A stretch of 62,995 nucleotides of DNA, filler included, from Reclinomonas americana ATCC 50394 (lineage: Eukaryota): assembly GCA_048213135.1 (NCBI GenBank). It is 13 parts of 13 records of this genome, joined end to end, with 100 filler letters (N's around TTAATTAATTAA, not from the genome) between each part and the next. Parts side by side here need not be neighbours in the genome. Positions count along the whole stretch, not along the records: positions 15,428 to 21,315 come from AFZH01021687.1; 12 more parts are not named here. The stretch is one strand, 5' to 3'. Positions within the stretch are counted from its first letter, which is position 1; every line of letters starts with the position of its first letter. The translations under genes and the position numbers were made by a program. Positions 15,328 to 62,995 of this stretch are shown in pieces. Below the pieces are notes generated by a model. It saw nothing but the letters and a program-made list of their open reading frames with translations, was not told the DNA's origin and made no database searches.

Positions 15328-15518
15328 NNNNNNNNNNNNNNNNNNNNNNNNNNNNNNNNNNNNNNNNNNNNTTAATTAATTAANNNNNNNNNNNNNNNNN
15401 NNNNNNNNNNNNNNNNNNNNNNNNNNNTTGGGCTTGATGAATTGGAGAGGTTGTTGGCTTCTTTCTCGAGTGCACGAGAACTAACACTGTTCGTTTTCGC
15501 GACGATCGTCGCCTGCAG

Positions 15519-16988
15519 GGCAACAAGCGGTGAGTCTGTTCTCATCGTGCGTGCGCACGCGTACTGCCGTCCACTCGCTCACTCGTCCGCGACGCAGGTG
15601 CAACATTGTCGACACCTGGTGGCAGACGGAGACGGGTGCCTGCATGCTGACGACTTTCCCGCACGCGACGCACATGCGCCCCGGCTACCCCGGTCTTCCC
15701 ATGTTCGGTGCGTGACGCGTCGCCCAGCAACCTCATTTGCAGTTGTGCTGTGGAGTCTGAGTTTCGTCTGCAGGCGTGCAACCGTTGTTGGTCGACGACG
15801 CCGGCCGGGAGGTGGACGGCAATCACCCTGGACAGGGCAAGCTGCTGCTCAAGGCCCCATGGCCCGGCATTGTTCGTGCTCTGCGTTTGACTGTGTTTTG
15901 TAGTAGCTCACTCGACTGTGGTGATGTAGATGCGCACCGTCTACGGCAACCAGAAGCGCTTCGAAGAGACGTACTTCCAGGAGCATCTGGGCTACTACAC
16001 CACCGGTGACGCCGCTGCGCGTGACAAGGACGGTTTCTACACCATCAAGGGACGCACCGACGACGTGCTGATTGTTAGGTGTGTGCTGCACGTCGTTTGT
16101 GTGGACACGACGGCTGCATGACTCATCTAGTTGTTTTTGCGTGTGTCCAGCGGCCACAATCTGGTTCGACGACTCGCGCACCGATGCACCAGCCTTACGA
16201 TTGAGACTCACATCTCCTCTGTTCACATGCAGGGTACGGCTGAGCTGGAGAGCGCATTCCTCACTCACCCGGTGCGTCGAATGACATCGGAAAACATTTT
16301 GTGATTGTAAGCGACTGACCTTCCCGCGCAGGCATGCATTGAGGCTGCCGTGGTCCCCGTGCCGCACCCCATCAAGGGACATGTGCGTCACTGTCTCCAG
16401 CATGCTGTGTGCGCACAGCCGACCCTCGTGACGCGTTTTGTTGTTGTTCTGTTTGCAGGGTTTGTATGTGTACATTGTGCCTCGTGACCCGAAATCCGTC
16501 GGCGAGCCACTGCGCAAGACCCTCAAGGAGCACATTCGCCACGAGATCGGAGCTTATATCCTTTGCTGTTCTCACTTCCTCCCATCTTGCGCTGTTCTCA
16601 CATTTTTTGTCGTCCTTGACTGTGTTCGTGCCTCACTCGCCGCCCCCGAGGACATTCAGTTCTGTGCCGCCCTGCCCAAGACCCGCTCTGGCAAGGTCAT
16701 GCGCCGCCTGCTGAAGAAGGTGGGCCGACGCAGTGTTTTGTCACGAAGTGTCGAAGACGGAGCACTCACAGGCGACGACTGCACAGTTTGCTCGTGACGA
16801 GTTTGACCATCTCGGCGATCTGTCCACGCTGCTCGGTGCGGGTTACACTTTCTCGCTCGCTTCCTCCCTGCCTCCCACTGATAAGTCTCACCGCGCATGC
16901 AGACCCGCCGGTGATTGATCAGCTCATTGCCGGTCGCAAGGCCCGCGTGGCCGAGGTCGCCGCCGCCAAGAGCGCCAAGAGCAAGTGA
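15519..16988 (+). CDS. ACS: acetyl-CoA synthetase (AMP-forming), C-terminal half; N-terminus lost in gap
   Basis: Motifs [85 protein letters not shown] and [14 protein letters not shown]. Stop TGA at 16986-16988. Confidence 0.95.
16556..16636 (+). other. U12-type (minor spliceosome) AT-AC intron in the ACS gene
   Basis: 5' end ATATCCTTT, branch site TCCTTGAC at 16613-16620, terminal AC at 16635-16636. Removal restores the conserved EIGAFAAPEDI. No GT-AG alternative found. Confidence 0.9.
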
Positions 16989-17252
16989 AGGAGAGCTCTG
17001 CGGTAAGTATGGTGCGGCGGCGATAACAAAATGAATGCAAAAGTCCGCGGCTTGGTGAACGAAGTCGTCGAAGTTGCTGTTTTTGGCAACAAGAGTGCTG
17101 CGACGGTTTAGTAACGCGAAAAGCGTGGGCATAGTCATCGTGGAAGCAGCACAGTGCTTACGTAAGCTTCATTATCCCGCACAACAACTTCGATCGTCCT
17201 GTCTTTGTTGTCTTGTTGTGTCGGGAGAGCTTGCCTCCTCTCTCTCTCTCCG

Positions 17253-20200
17253 ATGGGTCACGTCTTTGCACGCGACACACTTCCTCGCGGCGTCATTCGT
17301 CAGTTCGAAACATGGTGTGTCTTCTGTGTGTGTATGCATTTTTCCTACACACTCACTCGCACTCACAAATCCTCACTTTGCTGTGCTCTCTCTTGCTCTC
17401 TCGCATGTGACAGGGACACCAATGATCGCCGTCGGATGGTGGTGAGCACGCGGACATGGCACACACACATCTTGTCAGACGAACGCACACACTCTCTCTC
17501 TCTCAAACACACACACTGCTCACTCACTCGCCTTACATGCACACATATGCACACACACTGAGTAACAAAGAAAAGACATCTCTTTTTATTGTTGTCCGCC
17601 TCTCCCTCTCACGCATTGCATTCCAGGTGAAATCAGGCAACATTGTCGGCGAAGAGGTCTCTGCGATTGTCAATCCCGCTCACTCGACACTCTCCTTCAA
17701 AGGAGGTGCGCGACTCTGCCTTTCTCTCCCCTCTTTGCTCACTCACTCACTCACTTGCTTGAAACACAAAGGCGTGGCGCAATCGCTGCTCAAGAGCGGT
17801 GGTCGGGAAATCGAGGACGAGTGCAAGAACTATGTGCGCAGGAATGGCCCTCTACCGACTGGATGTGCCATGAGCACCAGTGCGGGCAGCGGTCGGCTGG
17901 CGTGCATGGCGATCATTCACACGGTGGGGCCGAACTGTCGCGATTCGGCAAAGGTGGACTGGGCGCGCGCCGACTCGGAGTTGTCGCAGTCGGTGATGAA
18001 CTGCCTGCAGATTGCCGACGAGCAGGTGCTGCGTAGCGTGGCCTTCCCGGCCATCTCCACGGGCATCTTTGGCTTTCCGGCCGACCGATGCGCATACATT
18101 ATGATCACGTCGGTGCTGCAGTTCTTCAATCAGCGGCCGAATGCCAATGTGACCGAGGTGCGCTTTGTGCTCTTCCAGGACGAGGTGGCGGAGACCTTTG
18201 CACAGGCCGTTGCGTGACACTGTTTTCCCCCACATTCTTTGCTGCAGTCCACTCCACGACATTGTTCTCAATGCATTTGTTCCGTGCAGTTTGACAGTCT
18301 CATGGAGGCCTACATCATGCCTCGGCCGCTGCCGGAGGTGCCGGCGACGCCAAGCACTGTTGCGGCAGCGGACATGCCGTCGGAACCGTCCGGATCGTCA
18401 GGGTCGTCACCGCCCTCTGGTGCAGCGGCAGCGGCAACACCAGCGGCAGCGGAGCAGCCGCGTCGCGGCGAACCTGCGGTCTCCCAACCGCCGCCATTGG
18501 CCCTCAGCGACAATCCGCGATTGGCACTCGATGCACAGCTCAACATGTGCCGCCAGTCTGAGCGCTCGCTGACAGAAACGATCGACAGTGTCAGTCGTCT
18601 CATTGACGACCGCCACTTGGTGGACGCCATCGAGGCCTGGGGCATTTTGCTGAAGGCTCAGCAGGCCATTGTTGCGTGCTCTCACCTGTGATTTTTCTGG
18701 CGTGTGCTGAAAAGCAGAGAATGACATGCGTGCAGAACGAGCGGCAGCAATCGGATGTGGCGCCCGAGCTGCGCCGGCTGCACGAGGTCGTGGATCGCCG
18801 CATTCGGCTGGCATTCGCGGCCGCCGGTGAGCTGCGCGCGCTCATCGAGCGTGACAAGGCCATCACTCCTGATGTGGCACGAGCTGCCGACCTGCGCACG
18901 GAGTCGTGCACGGCGGCTGGCGAGTCGATTGATCAGCTCATGGCGTTTTTGGATGCGCGGTGCTCTGCGGAGAACAGTGTGGTGGAGAGTCTGGAGCGCG
19001 TGGCTGCCAGCCTGCGTCGTGTCGGTGTCGCAGTCCCTGTCGACCTGAATGAGTTGCCGGCGCCGTCGCACGAACTCGGTTTGCTGTGTTTGTTGCCCGT
19101 TGTATCGCGTAACGGGTCAGCCTGCTTACGTGTTGCTTCGTCGCAGATCTGCCAAGTCTGTTCATGAGCGTCGAGCAGTGGCTGAGCACGCATGTCACGG
19201 AGCTGGCCACGGCCACGCACAACTGCAACTTTTACTTTGAGCATGGCACAGTCACGCAGTGGAGGGAGGCAGTGGCCGTGGAGCGCACACTGATTCAGCA
19301 GGTGTGTTTTCGAGGGAGAGGGACGAGAGTGTCCGCACACAAATGTCTCACCTCGTGCGTGCGCACACAGTGCATGGCATCGTGGCCGCTGAACCCGGAG
19401 TTGGCAGACCCGCTGCAGGTGCTCACGCACATGCGCCGAATGGCCAAGGACACGGTGCAGCTGCTGATCAACCGTCGTGCCAGCATGTCGGAGTTGGAGG
19501 GTAACCGACGAGTCTTTGATCGCGTCATTCGTGCCCGTCGGGAGGTGTCTTCGCTGGCCACACAGATAGAGGCAGCGCAGCGCAAGCTCAATTTGAGCCA
19601 GCTGGACATCGAGCAAAAGCCGCTCGATCGCCGCCGCATGGAGTTGCAGGGCGCGTCGGTTGGCGCACTCGACGACATCGACCAGCAGCTGGCCGAGGCG
19701 CGACGAAAGCACGATGAGGCGCGTTCCGAGTTCGAGCGACTCAATGCACAGTTGAAAGACTTCCAGGATCCCGAGTGGCTGCCTGATGTCCCGCTGCAGC
19801 CCGTCGGCAACACGGCCACGGTTGCGTGCCTATTTGAGGTGGCGGTGTACAGAAGGGGAAAAGTGGAACTTATACGCGATGTGTGTGTGTGCGCAGGGCT
19901 TGTGGATCTCGCAATATGGTGGCACACTGCCGCTGCCGCGTGCGCTGCAGAGCGATGCGCTGCATTTGGTGGGTCGCCGACGCGAGGACTACGATGCAAT
20001 CAAGAATTTGGCCAGTGCAAACTCTGTATTCAAGGCGCGCTACCGCCCCACCGAGCACGAGTGCGTCATCAAGCAGTTTGACGTCAGCCTCCCCGAGCTG
20101 CGCCGCGCCTTCCTCAAGGAGCTGTCTGTGCTGCGGAAAGTGCGCCACCCCAATGTCGGTGCGTGCAGCAGAAGAATGTTTGCGAGTTTCTCAGTGCGGA

Positions 20201-20380
20201 GAATACTCACTCTTTTGACGTGACAGTGCCACTGAATGGCTTCTTTGAGGCGCCGAGCACCTGCATGATGCTGGAGTTGCCGTATGTCGGCAGCCAAAAT
20301 CTGTGGCAGTGGCTGGACTCTGAGCGCCCGAGTGACGACGTGATTCGCGCCGTGTTTCAACAGTTGGTGCAGGTGAGTCC

Positions 20381-20414
<34 letters not shown>

Positions 20415-21252
20415 CTGAGAGCGAGAAAGAAAGAGAAAGCGAGAGAAAGACTGAGAGAGAATGAGAGACTGATTATGACTGAGAGACACCTGCGCCATGT
20501 CGAGTTTTCGCAGAGTGTCTTGCTTAAATTGTGTCACATTAACTGCAGGGCTTGTTGGCGTTGCACCAAAACGACGTTGTACACACGGACATGAAGCTGG
20601 AGAACGTCGTCATGCGTGATGACGGTCGTCCCGTGATTGTCGACTTTGATGTGGCCATCAGCAAGGACATGTTGACGAAGCGAACGGCGATTCGGCAGAG
20701 TTGCGTGACATGTGCAATTCGGATGACCATTCGTTTCCACTCATGTGGAGAGCACACACACAGCGGTGCGTGGTACGGACGGCTATCTGGCGCCTGAGCT
20801 GCTCGGCGGTGATGCCGCGCGCTACATTGACAAGCCCGCTCGCGACATGTGGTGCATCGGTGTCATGCTGATCCGCGCCTACATGTTCAACAACGAGGTG
20901 TCGCCGATGATCGACTTCAGTCGACCCGTGGCCAACATGACGCAGTTTGCCAGCCGTCTGGAGAATGTGCCGTATCTCATGGCGCTGCTGTCGGCACTGG
21001 TGGGTGGATGGGAGGAAGTGGGGAAGGGGCGGAGGGGATATTGGGGGAAAGAGGGAGAGAGGAGGAGAGGGAGCAGGAAGGGGGGAGGGGGACGGGGGAA
21101 GGGAGAGTGGGAGTATGGGGGAGAGAGAGAAAGAGGTGGAAGAGAGAGGGGGAAGAACGATAAAGAAGGGAGAGAGAGGAGAGACATGATGTAATGCTCA
21201 GTGAGAAAGTGGGAGAATTTGGGAGTGGCGGTAAGGACAGTAAGAGTTACAA

Positions 21253-21310
<58 letters not shown>

Positions 21311-23969
21311 AGAGANNNNNNNNNNNNNNNNNNNNNNNNNNNNNNNNNNNNNNNNNNNNTTAATTAATTAANNNNNNNNNNNNNNNNNNNNNNNNNNNNN
21401 NNNNNNNNNNNNNNNCAGGTTGTTCGGGAGAATATGAGAGAGTGAGAGCGCGAGGAGAATGAGGAGGAACAGATAATCGAAGAGAGAGAAAGCGAGGAGG
21501 GGAGATAAGGAAGGGAGAGAGAGGGAGAGACGTAGATGTGAGAGAAGAGTGAGGGGGAGAATTTGGAGCGTGGCGGAGAGACATAAAATAGATGCAAGAG
21601 AGATAGAGAGGTGGTTGTTTGGGAAGAGAGCGATCATGCCTGTGTCTAAATGGTGATCTTGTCGCTGCTCCAGTTGACACAAGATCCGAATGCCCGTATT
21701 TCTGCGGTGGACGCTTCTTGCCATCCATACTTTGTGGCATCGCGCGTGTTGATGATGCCATCGGCGCCGTTGCTGGAGCGGACGGAGCGAGCCTACATCA
21801 ATTTCCGCCAGAGCATCTCCAACGCCATTCAGCGCTGCGTCAATCGACGATATATGGTTGCGTTTCTTTGTTTCTCGCCTATTCGCATGCTCGCCTGCTG
21901 GGCGACTGACGCAGTGTGTAGCGTCTTCCGATTCGCCGTGATCACATGGTGGAGGACGTGGTAGAGTTGATGCTGGCACTGGCGCCTGCTTCGTGGCTCG
22001 AAAAATCCTATGTCGAGTATGCCGGCGAGCAGGGCATTGATGTCGGCGGTCTGACGTCGGACATGTACACAAAGGTGAGAGGTTTTCTCTTTCGTGTGTG
22101 TGTGGGCGGTGTTTTGACTGTCGCTCACCTCCCTCGGATCAGTTCTTCTATGGCATGTGTGCGGAGGGCAGCGTGTTTGAGAAGGAGGAGCAGAGCCACT
22201 TTTACATGCCTGTGGATCTGAACAGCATCACAAACGCGGCCAAGCGACAGGCGGCCGAGAGGACGCTCAGGGGCGTCGGTCGTGTGTTTGCACGGTGCAT
22301 TGTGGACGAGCGCAAGATTCCGTATCCGCTCATTGCGCCAGTTTTCTGGACACTGCTGTGCGGTGCGGTGGCGTGGGATTGTAGTGTGCTTACTCTGCAG
22401 TGGCAATGACCCCATTGTTTAATCACGCAGGTGGCGAGTCTACGCAAATCATTTTGCGCACGAGCAGCTCCACCAGCGAGTGCAACTTGCTGCTGCGTGC
22501 GCTGGAGCCCATCGACCCTGGACTTGTGCGAGTTTTCCGGCAGGCACTGACTGACGACTCGGTGGACACGTGGATGATGACGTTTGAGGATGTGGATCCC
22601 GAGTTTTTGCCGTCGGATATGGGTGCGGAAGGGGGGCGGAGAAGGGGAAGGGGGGAGGGGTGAAGGGTGGGAAGGGAGAGCGAATGCGAAATGTTTGTGT
22701 GTGCGTTTGGATTGTTGGGAGTTTGTTCGCTGGATGGTTTATCGATTGTCTGTTTGTCTCTCTGCCTCTCGTCGCGTCTCCCTTTCTGTCTTTTGACGTT
22801 TTTGATTGCTGGTCTGCTTGCAGTGTGTTGTGTGCTTGTCCCCTCTCTCTCTGGCTGTCTGCCTACCGTCGCACTTGCATGCCTTCCTGCCTGGCGGTGT
22901 GTCTGTCTGTTTTTCTGGTTGCGTTTGCACACATTCTTTCTCTCTCTCTCTCTCTCTGACACTGTCCCCATCTTTCTGTCTGCCTGATTTTGTTCGACTG
23001 TCCCGCTTGTTCTGTTGCGTGCTTGTTTTTTGACTGTCTCTGGCTATCTGTTTCTCTCTTTGTCTTCTCACTGTTCGGTCGATTGCATTTTGTTGTGTAC
23101 TCCTCTTTTCTCTCTCCTCTCTCTCTTTCAGCCTGGCTGTCTGTTTGGTTTCCTTCTGTTTGAGTACTCGTTTTGCTTGTCTCTCTGACGCTTTCTTCTC
23201 TCTCTCTCTCTCCATCTAGTTGAACGTTTGCCTGCTTGTTTTTCTACTCTCTCTTTTTCTGGCGCGTGTCTGTTGCTTACTTGATCGCCAACAGAGGCCA
23301 CCACTCTTGTGCGAGCCTCTAACGCCTACACATACGTGTGCAACCGATGTCGCTCGCGATTGGCCACCAACGGCCGCCGTGCTGCCATTGATTTTATCCG
23401 TGAGGGCATGCGAGATCTGCTCTGCGTGCCGGTGGAAGTTGCATTTCACAACCCCTCTGTTGCTGTGTATCGAACTCCAACTTGTGCTCATTACTGGCAC
23501 TTCAGGTATTCGAGGCCATGACGCCATCGTCGTGGATGCGAGTGCTGGTGGCCGACGAGTCGATGGATGTCAGCGACATTCTCAGCATTATCCAGTATCA
23601 CGGGCGTGGTGGGGCGATCAAGGAGATTTTGGAGGACGTGCTGCGGTCATTCTCGGAGCCGGAGCTGCGCGCGTTCTTGCAATTCGTCACTGGCCAGCCG
23701 GCGCTGTGTGCCGAGTTGAACGTCAAGGCGGTGGATGTGCCACGCGACGCACTGCCAGTGTTGCGTCTTTTCGTTGTTTGTCATTTGTTACTACTATAGC
23801 CGTTGTTCACCACTGCACGTGTAGGGCGCACACGTGCTTCCTCCAGCTGGATGTGAGCCGTCGTCTTGGAGCCGTGGCATCCGAGGCCGAGCGCAGAGAA
23901 GCAGTAGACCTTTTGCGCTCCAAGCTGTTGTACGCCATGGAGAACTGCGACGGCTTTGCTCTCGAATAA
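17253..23969 (+). CDS. macrodomain + coiled-coil + protein kinase + HECT E3 ubiquitin ligase fusion (spans gap 21316-21415 inside an intron)
   Basis: Macro at about 17626-18208 (AIVNPAH, KGGVAQSL, IIHTVGP, VAFPAISTGIFGFP). Kinase at about 19990-21733 (VIKQ, KELSVLRKVRHPNV, HTDMKLEN, DFD, GTDGYLAPE, LLSAL|LTQDPNARISAVDASCHPYF). HECT at about 21920-23969 (YAGEQGIDVGGL, FLQFVTG, LPVAHTCF, LRSKLLYAMENCDGFALE*). Confidence 0.85.
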
Positions 23970-24132: not shown

Positions 24133-25493
24133 TCACAACTTGGCCGTGAGACCACCCGCCGAAGCGGCGGCGATTTCGGTGACCGCACGCACGCCGGTCT
24201 CCATCGCAGTGTGAATGGTCGACGACACACTGGTGTGCGTGGCCTCACCGGCAAAGAACAAGCGCCCGTGCACCGGCTGCGCGTGACGTGATGAGGAGAG
24301 AAACGCAGTGCAGGCAACGTGCAGTGCACAAGCAAGTACCTCGGCGAGTGCCAGCTTCTTGCCGTAAGCGCCGACCGAGGGATGGCTGTACGACCCGCGA
24401 ATGAACGGGTGGTCCTTCCATGAGTACACAGCGGCGTCTCCAAACGAGCTGGTGGCCGGCTTCGGGTTCTGCTCGGTGCCAAACATGGTGTCGAGGAACT
24501 CGAGGAACTCGCGTGTGCCCTTCTCCTTGCCGAGCCGTCGGAGGCGATCGTCGGCATCGTCACCAATGACAAACGCCACCACAGTGTACTCCTGCTCGCC
24601 AGGTCTGCAGCGTGCCGGGTTAGGGGTCTTACGAGGAACACCGAGGCGACAGGATCACTCACCGCTTGCCAGGGAATGGACCATTCATCCACACTTGCGA
24701 AAACTGCGGATTCTCGGTGATCACCAGATCAATAGTCTGTTCACAAGGGTCAACGGTGAGGCCAGATGGGGACGAACGAAGATAGGTGACACTCACTGAC
24801 CTCGGGCCAGAACCGCTTGTTGAATCGGCAGATAATCTGCAGGGGAGCAGAGGTTAGAAAAATCGACATGTGGGGAAAGGACACTGACACACACGCACCT
24901 TTGCGCCACCCTCCATGCCAATGCTCTTGGCGGCATCAATCTTGGCCGGCGGCAGTGGCGGATCGAAAGTAATGTCGCCCGCGGCGAGAATCGTCACCGG
25001 CACGGTGATAATCACATGGTCACACCGCACCACTTCGCCGTTCTGGTTGGTGATCTCCACACCCGAGTCCTCGCGGTAGCGGATGTTCTTGGCCTGCCAG
25101 TTGAGGCGGACATCGACGCCCTCGGTGAGCGCATCCAGCACCTGCTTGGTGGAGCGCCAGAAGCGGAAATTGTCGCGTCCGTACTTCCACTGGCGATCCT
25201 CACGAGCGCCCTCCTGCGCACAGGGAGTGAGGCATCAGAGTGGGAACGTGCATGGAAATAGAGAAAACTGCGCCCACCTTGACACCGAGCCGCGTGCACG
25301 TGGTGCCATAGGTGCGGCAGTAGAGCGACTCGGCCACGCGGAACAACTCCTCGTGCACGCCCTTCTCCCGCAGATACTCGTAGAAGGAGACATCGTCGGG
25401 CATGTCCTCCTCCTCGTCGCCAATCATGTCGATCACCGCAAACATGTGCTCCATGTGCGGACTGGTCTCGCCCTCGAACACCATTTGCCCGCC
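24133..25493 (-). CDS. flavin-dependent amine oxidase (polyamine oxidase/LSD1-like fold) with PTS1 -AKL; N-terminus lost in gap
   Basis: DVRLNWQA, CDHVIITVPVTIL, ITFDPPLPPAKIDAA, WKDHPFIRGSYS, LFFAGEAT...TIHTAMETGVRA; ends GGLTAKL*. Confidence 0.9.
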
Positions 25494-25700
25494 TGTGGGT
25501 TGCCGGAAAGGAGAAGGGGTTGAGTAAGGGAGTAGTGAGAGAGACGAGAAGTGAGAGAAGACAGTCAGCAGCAAGCGCTGGCATGGAGATTGAGCAGAAA
25601 NNNNNNNNNNNNNNNNNNNNNNNNNNNNNNNNNNNNNNNNNNNNTTAATTAATTAANNNNNNNNNNNNNNNNNNNNNNNNNNNNNNNNNNNNNNNNNNNN

Positions 25701-50704: not shown

Positions 50705-53648
50705 ATGGCGGGCGCGGGATGGGATGTGGGCGCCGTGTACGCCAACGACGTGGGCCTTGTCTCCGCCAGCCGCCTGAGCGGTGACGGGTCGCAGCTCGCG
50801 GGCGGAGCAGGTGGCGCCGGCTTGCTGGGCTTTGGCGGTGGAGGCGACGACGACTCGATTGTGGCCGCCGGTCTCGCCACCAATGACGTGGCGCGGCGGC
50901 GCTTCTTTGAGTTCCTGCGCCACTTTAGCATCTCCAAGGCCGGTGCGGGCGGCGCGGCGGCGGCAATGGGAGGTGCGGTCGATGTCGACGTGGCGGCGGG
51001 AGGTGGCGTCGAGTACCCGTATCGAGTGGCGCTGCGTGAGGCCGTGCATGCGCCGTCGTCGTCGTTGCGCTTTATCGTGGTCGACTTGGCCGACTTGCGA
51101 TCCTACGATGCCGATGTTGAGTGTGCACATCACAAAAACACGCATTGTCGTGCTTGCTCTCTCTGTCTCACGCATGTTGTGATGCGCAGCTGGCGGGTGC
51201 GTTGATGGAGCGACCAGCGCAGCTGATGCAAGCGGTTCGTGTTTGCTTGCGTGTGTGTGACATGCCATCTCCGACTGTGACTGGAACCTCCTTGTGCAGT
51301 TTGAGAGTGCGGCGCACGAGGCGATTCAGTTTACGGATGTGCGGCCGGCGGCGGGAGCGGTGGCGGAGATGGAGTTGGTGCCGGCGTTGTCGGTGCCGGT
51401 GCAGGTGCTGCTGCGCGGGCAGGCGTCGGAGGTCGGCGTGCGTGTGCTCTCGTCGGTGCGCATCTCGCAGCTGGTCACCCTGCGTGGCATTGTCATTAGT
51501 GCCAGCAAGACGAGGTGCGGCGAGGCGAGAGATAGTCGGGTGGTTTTTCCGAACGGGCGATGATTGATGATTGATTGTGTGTGCAGGTGCAAGGCTACTC
51601 GGCTGGGCATTCGGTGCGCGAGCTGCGGGCATGTGGCGTACATTTCGGTGACGCCGGGTATGGGTTCGGCGACGCTGCCGCGCAAGTGCATGAGCGAGGC
51701 GCAGCCGGATGGATCGCGGCCGTGCCCGGTCGATCCGTACATTATCGATCCGCAGCGATCGGCGTTCCTCAACCAGCAGGTGCTGAAGGTGCAGGAGCTG
51801 CCGGAGAATGTGCCGACGGGTGAGATGCCACGGCATGTGCTGTGCGTGGCCGATCGTACGCTCTGCGATCGTGTTGCTCCAGGTGCGTTTGCAGAATCAA
51901 TCACTGTTTCCCTCTTCGCCCCCTGTTGACGTTGATCGGTGGACGCAGGCACACGTGTTCGCATGGTGGGCATTCACTCAATCTACCAAAAGTTTGGTAG
52001 CGGCGGTCGCACGGGCGTGGGTGCGGCCGGCATTCGGCATCCGTACTTGCGTCTTCTCGGTCTGGAGTTGGCGTCGGGCGACGGTGCCGAACTGGTGCGC
52101 CCATGCCTCACATTTTTTCCTTTCCTTCGTGTTGCTGTCCGTCTCACCACCTCCTTTGTTTTTCTCGGTGCAGTTCAATCCGGAGGAGGAGGGGCGCTAC
52201 GCAGAAATCTCGCGCATGCCTGACTTGCAGGATATGATTGCGCGCAGCATCGATCCGGCCATTTTCGGTCTGGAGGACATCAAGAAGGCCATTGCGTGCC
52301 TGCTGTTTGGTGGCTCCTCCAAGCGTCTCCCCGACGGCACTCGTCTCCGCGGTGACATTAATGTCCTGCTGCTCGGCGATCCGTCGGCTGGCAAGTCGCA
52401 GCTGCTCAAGTACACGCAGCGCATTGCGCCAGTGGGTGTGTACACCAGTGGCAAGGGCAGCAGTGCTGCCGGTCTGACGGCCTCGGTCATTCGAGACAGC
52501 AGTGTTAGTACAACTCACCTTGCCTTTGTTTGTTCGCTTGCCTGCGTGCTGAATGTGTGTGTGCGCGCACAGGGCGAATTCTATCTGGAAGGCGGTTCGA
52601 TGGTGCTGGCCGACGGCGGTGTGGCCTGCATCGACGAGTTCGACAAGATGCGTGAGCAGGACCGTGTGGCCATTCACGAGGCCATGGAGCAGCAGACGAT
52701 TTCGATTGCCAAGGCCGGCATCACCACCATGCTCAACTCGCGAACCGCCGTCCTCGCCGCCGCCAATCCCTCGTTCGGCAGGTACGACGACACGCAGGCG
52801 GCTACGGATCAAATCGACTTCCAGACCACCATCTTGTCGCGTTTCGACATGATTTTCATTGTGCGTGATGTGCGCGACGAAGCCAAGGATCGCCACATTG
52901 CCACGCACGTGTTGCACATTCACCAGCAGGTGTCGTCGTCGAACATGGGTCCGGCGCCGGAAATCGACTCGGAGGAGCTGCGACGCTACATTGCCTATGC
53001 CCGACAGTTGAGTCTCGCTCGTGTTGCCTTGCTTTTTGTTTGTTTGGAAAATGTCTCTGATGAATGTCGTTGGTGTCGACGTGCAGCAAGTGCGCACCAC
53101 GCTTGGCGGAGGAGGCCGCAGCAACGCTGCGCAACGAGTACGTGGCCATGCGACAGGACGTGCGCGATGCTGCTGCAGGCAGCGGCACGGCCGCCATTCC
53201 CATTACCGTGCGCCAGCTGGAGGCCATTGTGCGTATCTCCGAATCGCTGGCCAAGATGACGCTGTCACCGGTGGCCACTGCCGAGCACGTCGCCGAAGTT
53301 GCGTTTTTTTGCTTGGCAGCTTTGTCTTCCGCCCACCCTCCTGACTGTCCCTGTTTGGTGGCGCAGGCCATTCGGCTGTTCCGCTCGGCGACACTCGACG
53401 CCGCCAAGTCGGGCATGATTGACGTGATGGCGCTGACCGATGACATGATGTCGGAGGTGCAGCAGGTGGAGGAGCGCATCCGCAGTCGCCTCGCTGTCAA
53501 CGCCTCCATGCCGGAGACAGCACTCATCGAGTTCCTGTCCTCCATGGGCTTCAACAAGGCCTCGATTCGTCGCGCCATCTTCATCATGATGAGTCGCGAG
53601 GAACTCGAGTACCGCTCACAACGACGCAAGATCTTCCGGAAACGATAA
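50705..53648 (+). CDS. MCM5: DNA replication licensing factor MCM5
   Basis: GWDVGAVY N-terminus; Zn finger CASC...LPRKC...[85 protein letters not shown]. Confidence 0.97.
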
Positions 53649-58434: not shown

Positions 58435-58598
58435 GTTGCGTGTATAGACAAGCCAGATTATCTTTCAAACGCGTGTTGCTGATCGTCGGCAAGCAGTGNN
58501 NNNNNNNNNNNNNNNNNNNNNNNNNNNNNNNNNNNNNNNNNNTTAATTAATTAANNNNNNNNNNNNNNNNNNNNNNNNNNNNNNNNNNNNNNNNNNNN

Positions 58599-59552
58599 CA
58601 TCGCCCGCCACAAAGTACGACGAGATCGCCGGCGAGGCGCCGTTCGTCGGCAGCAAGTTGCCGTCCGAGGTCTTCATCTTGCCATCGATAAAGGTGCGCA
58701 GCGAGTTGGCCGTGGTCGCGTCGGAGCCGTACACTTGCGAGGCGTCGATCCACGCAGTGATGTGGTTGATCTGCTCACGGCGACCGTTGATCGACTGGTA
58801 GTCGTCGCGCGACTGCGGAATGGCGCCGCCAAACAGCGGGTCCGCCGGATCCAGCACGGCAATCGACGAGTCCTGCGCGGGACTGGCGCTGGCCGTCTGC
58901 GTAATATCGTGGTCCAGGAACTGGCCCCACTGCCACACCATGCCCGACACGTTGTTGGCGGCCTCGAACTCATTTGGCTCGCCGTCGGCGTCGACGCCCT
59001 GCTGCAGCACCAGGTTGGAGATATCGCGGGCATTGGGTCCCGAGCGCAGGCTATCGTCGGCGCCGTAGTTGGCGAGGTTGGCGTAGCGAATGTACGTCTG
59101 GCCGGCGGAGCCGAGCGGGCACTTCTTTTTGTTGGGTGCCGACGCATCCGGAACGCATCGCTGCTGCAGGTTGTTGTTGGCGCCGTCAATCGAGCGCCAT
59201 TCGGGTTGCGCCGGCTGTTGCGGAGGAGGTGGCTGCTGACCACCGCCGTTCTGGGGAGGCTGCTGCTGGCCACCACCATTGTTCTGACCACCAGTGTTCT
59301 GCGGGGGCTGCTGCTGGCCACCATTGTTCTGGCCACCATTGTTCTGGCCACCAGTGTTCTGGGGAGGCTGCTGTTGTTGTTGGCCACCACCGTTCTGTGA
59401 CGGTGGAGGAGGAGCGGCTTGTGCACTGTGTGATAACATGAGGTGAGTGGGAGTGTTGTGGGGAGAGAGGGAGAGAGGGAGGAAAAGACTCACAAGACGG
59501 CCACAATGACCAAGAGTGCCAGCACGGCAAGCACACGAGGAGAGAACATCAT
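58599..59552 (-). CDS. secreted heme peroxidase (peroxidase-cyclooxygenase superfamily) with Q/N/G/P-rich N-terminal repeats; C-terminus lost in gap
   Basis: Signal peptide MMFSPRVLAVLALLVIVAVF|AQA, then RSIDGANNN, PNARDISN, WGQFLDHDI, REQINHITAWIDASQVYGS, LRTFIDGKM and FVAGD. Confidence 0.9.
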
Positions 59553-60200
59553 GATGATTGTTGTTGTTGTCGTTGTTGTTGTGTGGAAGGAGGAGGTTGT
59601 CAGGTCTCACAAGTGAGGTGCGATATAGGGTGTGGTGGTTGCAAAGGAGGCCATCGTGGCGGCTTTATGGTGCGTGCGAGTCGGGTGGCCGACAGATGTC
59701 GCGGAGGTAGACTGCAAATTGCACTCCAAATTGCGCGTGTCTGATGTGGGCGGCTTCCGGGCGCCAGCTTGCAGGGTCTTGAGTGAAAGAAAAGAGAGGC
59801 ATGATAATGGAGGTGTGAATGGGGAAATGGTGACCATCAGCTGTCGCGAGACGAAGTGGAAGCAATCAACGTTCTTGAATATCGAATCCGGACATCAAGT
59901 ACGACAACCAATCTCCCTTGCCGCGATGAAGGCAAACCTCATGCAGCGGCAGTTTGGCAGGCAGGTGCTGTAGCCACAACTAGCACAGGGAAGCACATAG
60001 TAAAACAATCTCGAAAAGCACGCCAGCGTCGACACAACGCTGTTGTGGTCAATTGCAATCGGAATAAATGCAGCGAGAAAACTGCAGGTCAAAGGTGGCT
60101 ATGCGATGAGAGTTCGAGAAACAAGAACGCACCGATGACGAAGAGAGCCAAGGCCCGCACTAAAGATCCGCACGACTCGGAACGAGCCTCGTTGTAAACG

Positions 60201-60828: not shown

Positions 60829-60911
60829 CCGAAGGTAGCTCAGCTGGAAGAGCATGGGACTGTAAGTGTTCTGATATCCCAGGGTCGAGGGTTCAATTCC
60901 CTCCCTTCGGA
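60829..60911 (+). tRNA. trnY: tRNA-Tyr(GTA) with a 10-nt intron (60866-60875)
   Basis: Acceptor stem CCGAAGG/CCTTCGG with discriminator A; D-stem GCTC/GAGC; anticodon stem TGGGA/TCCCA with GTA at 60862-60864; intron at canonical 37/38; T-arm GAGGG-TTCAATT-CCCTC; C1:G72. Confidence 0.95.
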
Positions 60912-60921
60912 CCTTCGACAT

Positions 60922-62897: not shown

Positions 62898-62927
<30 letters not shown>

Positions 62928-62995
62928 CTTCTTCTTCTTCTTCTTCTTCTTCTTCTTCTTCTTCTCTCTTCTTCTCTTCTTCTTCTTCTTCTTCT
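62898..62995. repeat. (CTT)n microsatellite
   Basis: Directly visible at the window end. Confidence 0.95.

Follow-up and report, generated by a model that had tools for sequence, protein, structure and literature searches.

U12-type (minor-class) introns are already known as a kind, and the probable example described here, in a gene for acetyl-CoA synthetase (ACS), would add one more to them. In the part of the source available to us, they are characterized by a 5′ splice site reading (A/G)UAUCCUUU, a branch site reading UCCUUAAC, a distance from branch to 3′ splice site of 10–20 nt with an optimum of 11–13, and no polypyrimidine tract (PMC8199999). The distribution of the minor spliceosome among protists is patchy and still under revision. 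A pan-eukaryotic survey that we draw on in excerpt reports minor introns in 64% of genera, with Amoebozoa, oomycetes, Blastocystis and Cyanophora among the protists that have them, and “no evidence at all” of them in Alveolata, Discoba and Ochrophyta (PMC10639083); excerpts of two further papers also give minor splicing as lost in alveolates (PMC6381282, PMC7789003). The same survey text counts 253 minor introns in Blastocystis ST1, 77% of them AT-AC and with a mean length of about 42 bp, about 12 in Acanthamoeba, and few to dozens in Phytophthora and Saprolegnia (PMC10639083).

The stretch of DNA analyzed here, referred to as the window, is 62,995 nt long and consists of 13 contigs of about 2–9 kb, with a 100-nt spacer at each of the twelve joins; every spacer comprises 44 N, the six-frame stop linker ttaattaattaa and another 44 N. 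Because the contigs are joined by spacers, genes on either side of one need not be linked. Di- or trinucleotide microsatellites form the ends of several contigs, such as (AG)n at 21256-21315, (GT)n at 46667-46732 and (CTT)n at 62898-62995. The spacers are located as follows.

3339-3438, 9866-9965, 15328-15427, 21316-21415, 25601-25700, 28279-28378: spacers 1-6
34612-34711, 37694-37793, 42078-42177, 46733-46832, 49083-49182, 58499-58598: spacers 7-12

The contig of interest spans 15428-21315 and carries, on its plus strand, an AMP-forming ACS gene that we modeled with the guidance of conserved ACS sequence. Since this contig begins mid-gene, the N-terminal part of the protein is missing, and roughly the first 400 codons lie outside the window. 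The features of the modeled gene, including the putative minor intron, are listed below.

15519..16988, plus strand: AMP-forming acetyl-CoA synthetase gene, C-terminal 261 codons, 11 exons
15519-15529, plus strand: exon 1, an 11-nt micro-exon encoding GNKR
15598-15707, plus strand: exon 2
15774-15871, plus strand: exon 3
15930-16078, plus strand: exon 4
16151-16163, plus strand: exon 5, a 13-nt micro-exon encoding the conserved (S)GHNL(G)
16233-16271, plus strand: exon 6
16332-16382, plus strand: exon 7
16459..16555, plus strand: exon 8, 97 nt, ending in EIGA plus T
16556..16636, plus strand: putative U12-type (minor-class) AT-AC intron, ACS intron 8, phase 1, 81 nt
16556..16564, plus strand: putative 5′ splice site ATATCCTTT, the first intron bases, with AT at 16556-16557
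16613..16620, plus strand: putative branch site TCCTTGAC, with A16619 as the presumed branch point
16635..16636, plus strand: 3′ terminal AC, in the context CAC followed by exonic TC
16637..16719, plus strand: exon 9, 83 nt, starting with TC and encoding AAPEDIQF...
16787-16835, plus strand: exon 10
16903-16988, plus strand: exon 11, with the stop codon TGA at 16986-16988

The 11-exon model translates without a stop or frameshift, with the frame depending on the inclusion of exon 5; the 11-nt exon 1, placed by a short match, is probably real. The spliced fragment is 52–56% identical to ACS proteins over residues 1–248 of 261, with 2 gap positions. Pfam AMP-binding_C (PF13193) matched the read-through ORF over exons 8 and 9 with 37.3 bits against a cut-off of 24.5, and 22 of the 28 PDB matches listed are named acetyl-CoA synthetase or acetate-CoA ligase. 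Protein searches with the read-through ORF and with exon 4 returned generic, mostly bacterial matches. The PKTRSGK motif, encoded in exon 9 at 16675-16695, is invariant in the alignment, and its last Lys corresponds to residue 609 of solved 652-residue ACS chains.

Nine of the ten introns in this model are GT-AG introns of 58–76 nt, with donors such as GTGCGT, GTTCGT and GTGAGT and with CTCAC- or CTGAC-type motifs 15–25 nt from the terminal YAG. The common U2-type donor pattern is GTRAGT. Across the nine GT-AG donors (15530-16902), position +3 is G in seven and T in two, never A, and position +4 is C in six; these departures from GTRAGT may be a lineage signature.

We then considered the boundaries of intron 8. 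Exon 8 can be aligned with homologues as far as the conserved EIGA/EIGP and ends in GGA GCT T, and exon 9 starts with TC GCC GCC, so that the joined exons read TTC (Phe) across the junction and encode EIGAFAAPED. Fourteen nucleotides (16621-16634) separate TCCTTGAC from the terminal AC, and the distance from the presumed branch A16619 to the final intron base is 17 nt. Downstream of the branch site, no AC or AG other than this terminal AC precedes the point at which homology restarts, and the entire 81-nt segment contains no AG dinucleotide. A stop-to-stop ORF (16432..16797) runs through the segment, which is in frame and stop-free and adds 27 residues, and the junction lies 19 residues ahead of the Lys in PKTRSGK. 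A sequence-only reading of this DNA had described an 81-nt intron with a ATATCCTTT donor and with TCCTTGAC followed by 14 nt and AC, and all of these coordinates proved exact on re-checking. It had also stated that splicing gives EIGAFAAPED, which joining exons 8 and 9 confirmed, and that the segment is read through in frame and would place 27 residues near the catalytic Lys loop, as borne out by the ORF and by the position of the junction. Within the intron, an 11-nt direct repeat, GCTGTTCTCAC, occurs twice (16565-16575 and 16591-16601); it includes CTCAC, a motif resembling the branch site of the neighboring U2-type introns.

Homology places the edges of the segment at the same nucleotides. 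All six aligned ACS proteins showed an exact 27-column gap at the segment, and the 27 residues were absent from 110 of 110 full-length ACS homologues, of which 107 had one residue across the insert columns and three had none. Full length was defined here as at least 560 aa, a threshold that kept 110 of 127 ACS sequences and excluded 17 shorter ones. The solved chain 8rpk is contiguous over the site, with query residues 4–31 aligned to chain residues 586–613 and query residues 58–86 to chain residues 613–641. A profile built from the 110 homologues was used to score every in-frame, stop-free excision in the region, 3,922 in total. Removal of 16556-16636 came first, with 62.8 bits, and the unspliced sequence came 1164th, with 42.5 bits; the close runners-up were shifts of 1–5 nt whose end dinucleotides make no sense. 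Of the 47 GT-AG or GC-AG pairs in the region, none fell within the top 25 excisions, and the seven in-frame pairs that we looked up scored 34.6–42.6 bits. We therefore rejected canonical GT-AG or GC-AG splicing, as no such pair restores the ACS profile as the AT-AC excision does.

The composition of the 81-nt segment is non-coding. Its third-position GC content (GC3) is 0.41 compared to 0.78 for the flanking exons, its bases are 43% T and 75% pyrimidine, and its translation has 4 Cys in 27 residues compared to 4 in the entire 261-residue spliced fragment. These properties bear on the possibility that the 81 nt are retained, either as a lineage-specific in-frame insertion of 27 residues or in a decaying pseudogene copy. 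The reading frame itself does not force removal of an in-frame, stop-free segment, and the view of whole-gene integrity is limited to the 261 C-terminal codons; nonetheless, we regard retention as highly improbable. Besides the complete absence of the segment from the homologues and the drop in GC3, the encoded peptide is hydrophobic and Cys-rich and would sit within a conserved segment just ahead of the catalytic Lys, and, apart from this segment, the 11 exons are intact, keep conserved motifs and close with a proper stop codon. Retention would, in addition, leave the exact match to splice signals described below as a coincidence.

The class of the intron is suggested by its terminal and internal signals. 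A U12-type branch site tolerates G at position 6, which gives the form TCCTTRAC. Compared with the consensus in the portion of the published criteria available, ATATCCTTT agrees with (A/G)UAUCCUUU at 9 of 9 positions, and TCCTTGAC agrees with UCCUUAAC at 7 of 8, having G instead of A at position 6 (PMC8199999). Branch-to-3′ spacing, at 17 nt, falls inside the 10–20 nt range and outside the 11–13 nt optimum given in the same text (PMC8199999). AT (16556-16557) and AC (16635-16636) are both present at the termini. The 14 nt past the branch motif comprise 10 pyrimidines broken by 4 G, a fairly pyrimidine-rich stretch that makes the absence of a polypyrimidine tract not clear-cut. Phase 1 is in keeping with the excerpted survey, in which minor introns tend to avoid phase 0 (PMC10639083). 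Judging from these sequence features, we consider 16556-16636 to be probably a real phase-1 spliceosomal intron that belongs to the AT-AC subtype of the minor (U12-dependent) class, with a probability of roughly 0.85. This is the assignment put forward in the sequence-only reading, and donor, branch site, spacing, termini and the restored protein all agree with it, with no canonical alternative.

We asked how readily such signals arise by chance. Both strands of the 62,995-nt window together contain a single RTATCCTT, where 0.42 occurrences are expected and at least one was found in 34 of 100 shuffles; TCCTTRAC occurs twice, where 2.57 are expected and at least two were found in 80 of 100 shuffles. 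As neither motif alone is rare across the window, the signal lies in their placement exactly at both edges of the homology gap. The joint probability of both motifs at these fixed boundaries is about 7e-10 given the base composition, and the composite pattern of donor, branch site, terminal AC or AG, and conserved coding frame matched once in the window and in none of 100 shuffles. The commonness of the single motifs is what could favor a chance resemblance, and the make-up of the window, a chain of 13 small contigs with 100-nt spacers whose origin could conceivably be mixed, is what could favor an artefact of assembly or contamination. The composite statistics oppose the former, and the latter is opposed by the GC content, intron length (58–81 nt) and micro-exon-rich structure common to the ACS, MCM5 and Rab1-like contigs; we find either one barely credible.

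A further alternative accepts the intron and its boundaries and assigns its removal to a different machinery. U2-type AT-AC introns carry U2-like donors, and a donor reading ATATCCTTT pairs poorly with U1 and U6. Under this alternative, 16556-16636 would be removed by the major spliceosome or a single merged one, either as a U2-type AT-AC intron or as a relic in a lineage whose minor snRNAs had been lost or transformed. The donor and branch site, however, are near-perfect U12 consensus sequences, unlike those of all nine U2-type neighbors. We searched the 63-kb window with Rfam, at gathering thresholds and at E-values up to 10, and found none of U11, U12, U4atac and U6atac; a tRNA-Leu was the only match at either setting. 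This result counts in favor of a major or merged spliceosome, as does the length of the intron, 81 nt being close to the 58–76 nt of its U2-type neighbors; however, absence from 63 kb says little because the sample is so small. For Cyanophora, the excerpted survey reports 77 minor introns and significant matches to U11 only (PMC10639083), so transformed minor-splicing machineries may exist, which makes this alternative conceivable. Weighing both sides, we consider it decidedly unlikely.

If the minor-class assignment is true, the genome of the organism has to encode a functional minor spliceosome. By inference from established minor splicing, the U11/U12 di-snRNP would contact ATATCCTTT at the 5′ splice site and, at the same time, TCCTTGAC at the branch site. 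U4atac/U6atac.U5 would join next, and U6atac would displace U11 at the 5′ splice site. A16619 would then attack the 5′ junction to form a lariat, and the exons would be ligated past the AC at 16636, completing the Phe codon from T and TC. A relaxed scan of both strands of the window revealed no second U12-like intron; only one other [AG]TATC[CT]T exists, on the antisense strand of an MCM5 exon, and no branch site accompanies it. Among metagenome contigs, a strict pattern for a U12-type intron at the same ACS codon, verified on the window, gave zero matches. One match to a relaxed pattern (L001) was a false positive, an uninterrupted 648-aa bacterial ACS ORF.

The intron also has consequences for annotation. 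Because it is in frame, stop-free and without GT-AG, gene callers would read through it or break the model, and a read-through annotation would carry 27 spurious residues beside the catalytic loop. Similarly, translation of a retained transcript would insert a hydrophobic, Cys-rich stretch of 27 residues, 19 positions ahead of the catalytic Lys in PKTRSGK.

We looked to the remainder of the window for the character of the genome and for hints of its lineage. Its GC content is about 56% (54–62% by 5-kb window), exon GC (0.63) exceeds intron GC (0.56), and it is rich in microsatellites and introns, with compact introns of about 58–81 nt and several micro-exons. Gene content is generic eukaryotic and includes MCM5, a Rab1-like GTPase, CAP, HECT, an LSD-like amine oxidase, Macro, YL1, ankyrin and haem peroxidase. 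Located features outside the ACS contig are the following.

24136-25234, minus strand: flavin amine oxidase, two exons, closest solved relatives the histone demethylases LSD2 and LSD1
44259-44271 and 44369-44385: consecutive 13- and 17-nt micro-exons of a Rab1-like gene, with GT-AG flanks and continuous with the next exon
50354-53645, plus strand: MCM5 gene, with Gly/Ala-rich low-complexity N-terminal inserts and in-frame introns of about 66-72 nt
58677-59664, minus strand: fragment of an animal-type, lactoperoxidase-like haem peroxidase, best PDB E-value 3.5e-18
60829-60913, plus strand: tRNA-Leu (anticodon UAA), the sole Rfam match in the window at the gathering threshold

Given the micro-exons in both the ACS and the Rab1-like genes, micro-exons seem common in this genome. 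The haem peroxidase fragment is preceded by 15-nt and 48-nt tandem repeats rich in Gly, Gln, Asn and Pro.

MCM5, whose full protein is probably longer than typical, provided the material for phylogenetic placement. Its core was at most 70% identical to proteins of Thecamonas, Galdieria, zygomycetes, heteroloboseans and stramenopiles, and showed no match above 70% in Acanthamoeba or other annotated genomes, both among proteins of 269–858 aa, a search range that leaves expanded alveolate-style MCM5 proteins (>858 aa) outside. A length-unlimited search of representatives gave at most 77% identity, a figure in which the 50% clustering can hide a close relative, and genome contigs returned only archaeal-type MCMs at 47–59% identity. 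In a quick tree of 36 rows (the query and 35 chosen from 120 matches listed, 20 of the 35 named), the query fell outside fungi, the Albugo/Ectocarpus clade and Galdieria, and thus does not group with those stramenopiles; it adjoined Heterolobosea and Thecamonas, in a placement without support. Cyanophora is unsupported as host, the order of exon and intron GC being the opposite of that given for Cyanophora in the excerpted source (PMC6142364). Mastigamoeba was rejected on its published GC of 60.7%, its mean intron length of 137 bp and the reported absence of a minor spliceosome, as given in the part of the genome paper available (PMC8136499).

What the intron means depends on where its host belongs. 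One high-confidence U12-type intron is a practical marker of a minor spliceosome that is still running, and in a lineage that keeps minor splicing it would be a catalogue entry. For a lineage presumed to be without it, the conclusion of loss would be reopened. We think it unlikely that the host belongs to Alveolata, Discoba or Ochrophyta, where minor splicing is reported to be completely lost; if it did, an AT-AC intron as close to the consensus as this one would provide the first evidence there of a surviving minor spliceosome. The sequence-only reading had also called the intron notable for lying in a metabolic gene, an argument that we find weak because the survey, in the text available, sees gene age as largely responsible for the functional bias of genes with minor introns (PMC10639083). 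Our literature search found no report of a minor intron in ACSS2.

Three groups of described introns offer the closest comparisons. U2-type AT-AC introns, in which the branch site is distant and comes with a polypyrimidine tract, share the AT and AC terminal dinucleotides with ACS intron 8 but differ from it in that intron 8 has the U12 donor and branch site. In animals and plants, canonical U12-type AT-AC introns (U12DB, MIDB, intronIC survey) have in common with it the 5′ splice site (A/G)TATCCTTT, a TCCTTRAC-type branch site near the 3′ end, the termini AT and AC, and a phase other than zero; in contrast to them, ACS intron 8 is much shorter, its 81 nt matching the compact introns of its host, and the metagenome contigs yielded no position-conserved orthologue. 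Protists with few or compact minor introns (Blastocystis, Acanthamoeba, Phytophthora, Saprolegnia) likewise combine a unicellular host with short AT-AC minor introns among many ordinary ones, although in Blastocystis, as far as the source in excerpt describes it, the neighboring introns measure about 30–40 nt, compared to 58–76 nt around ACS intron 8.
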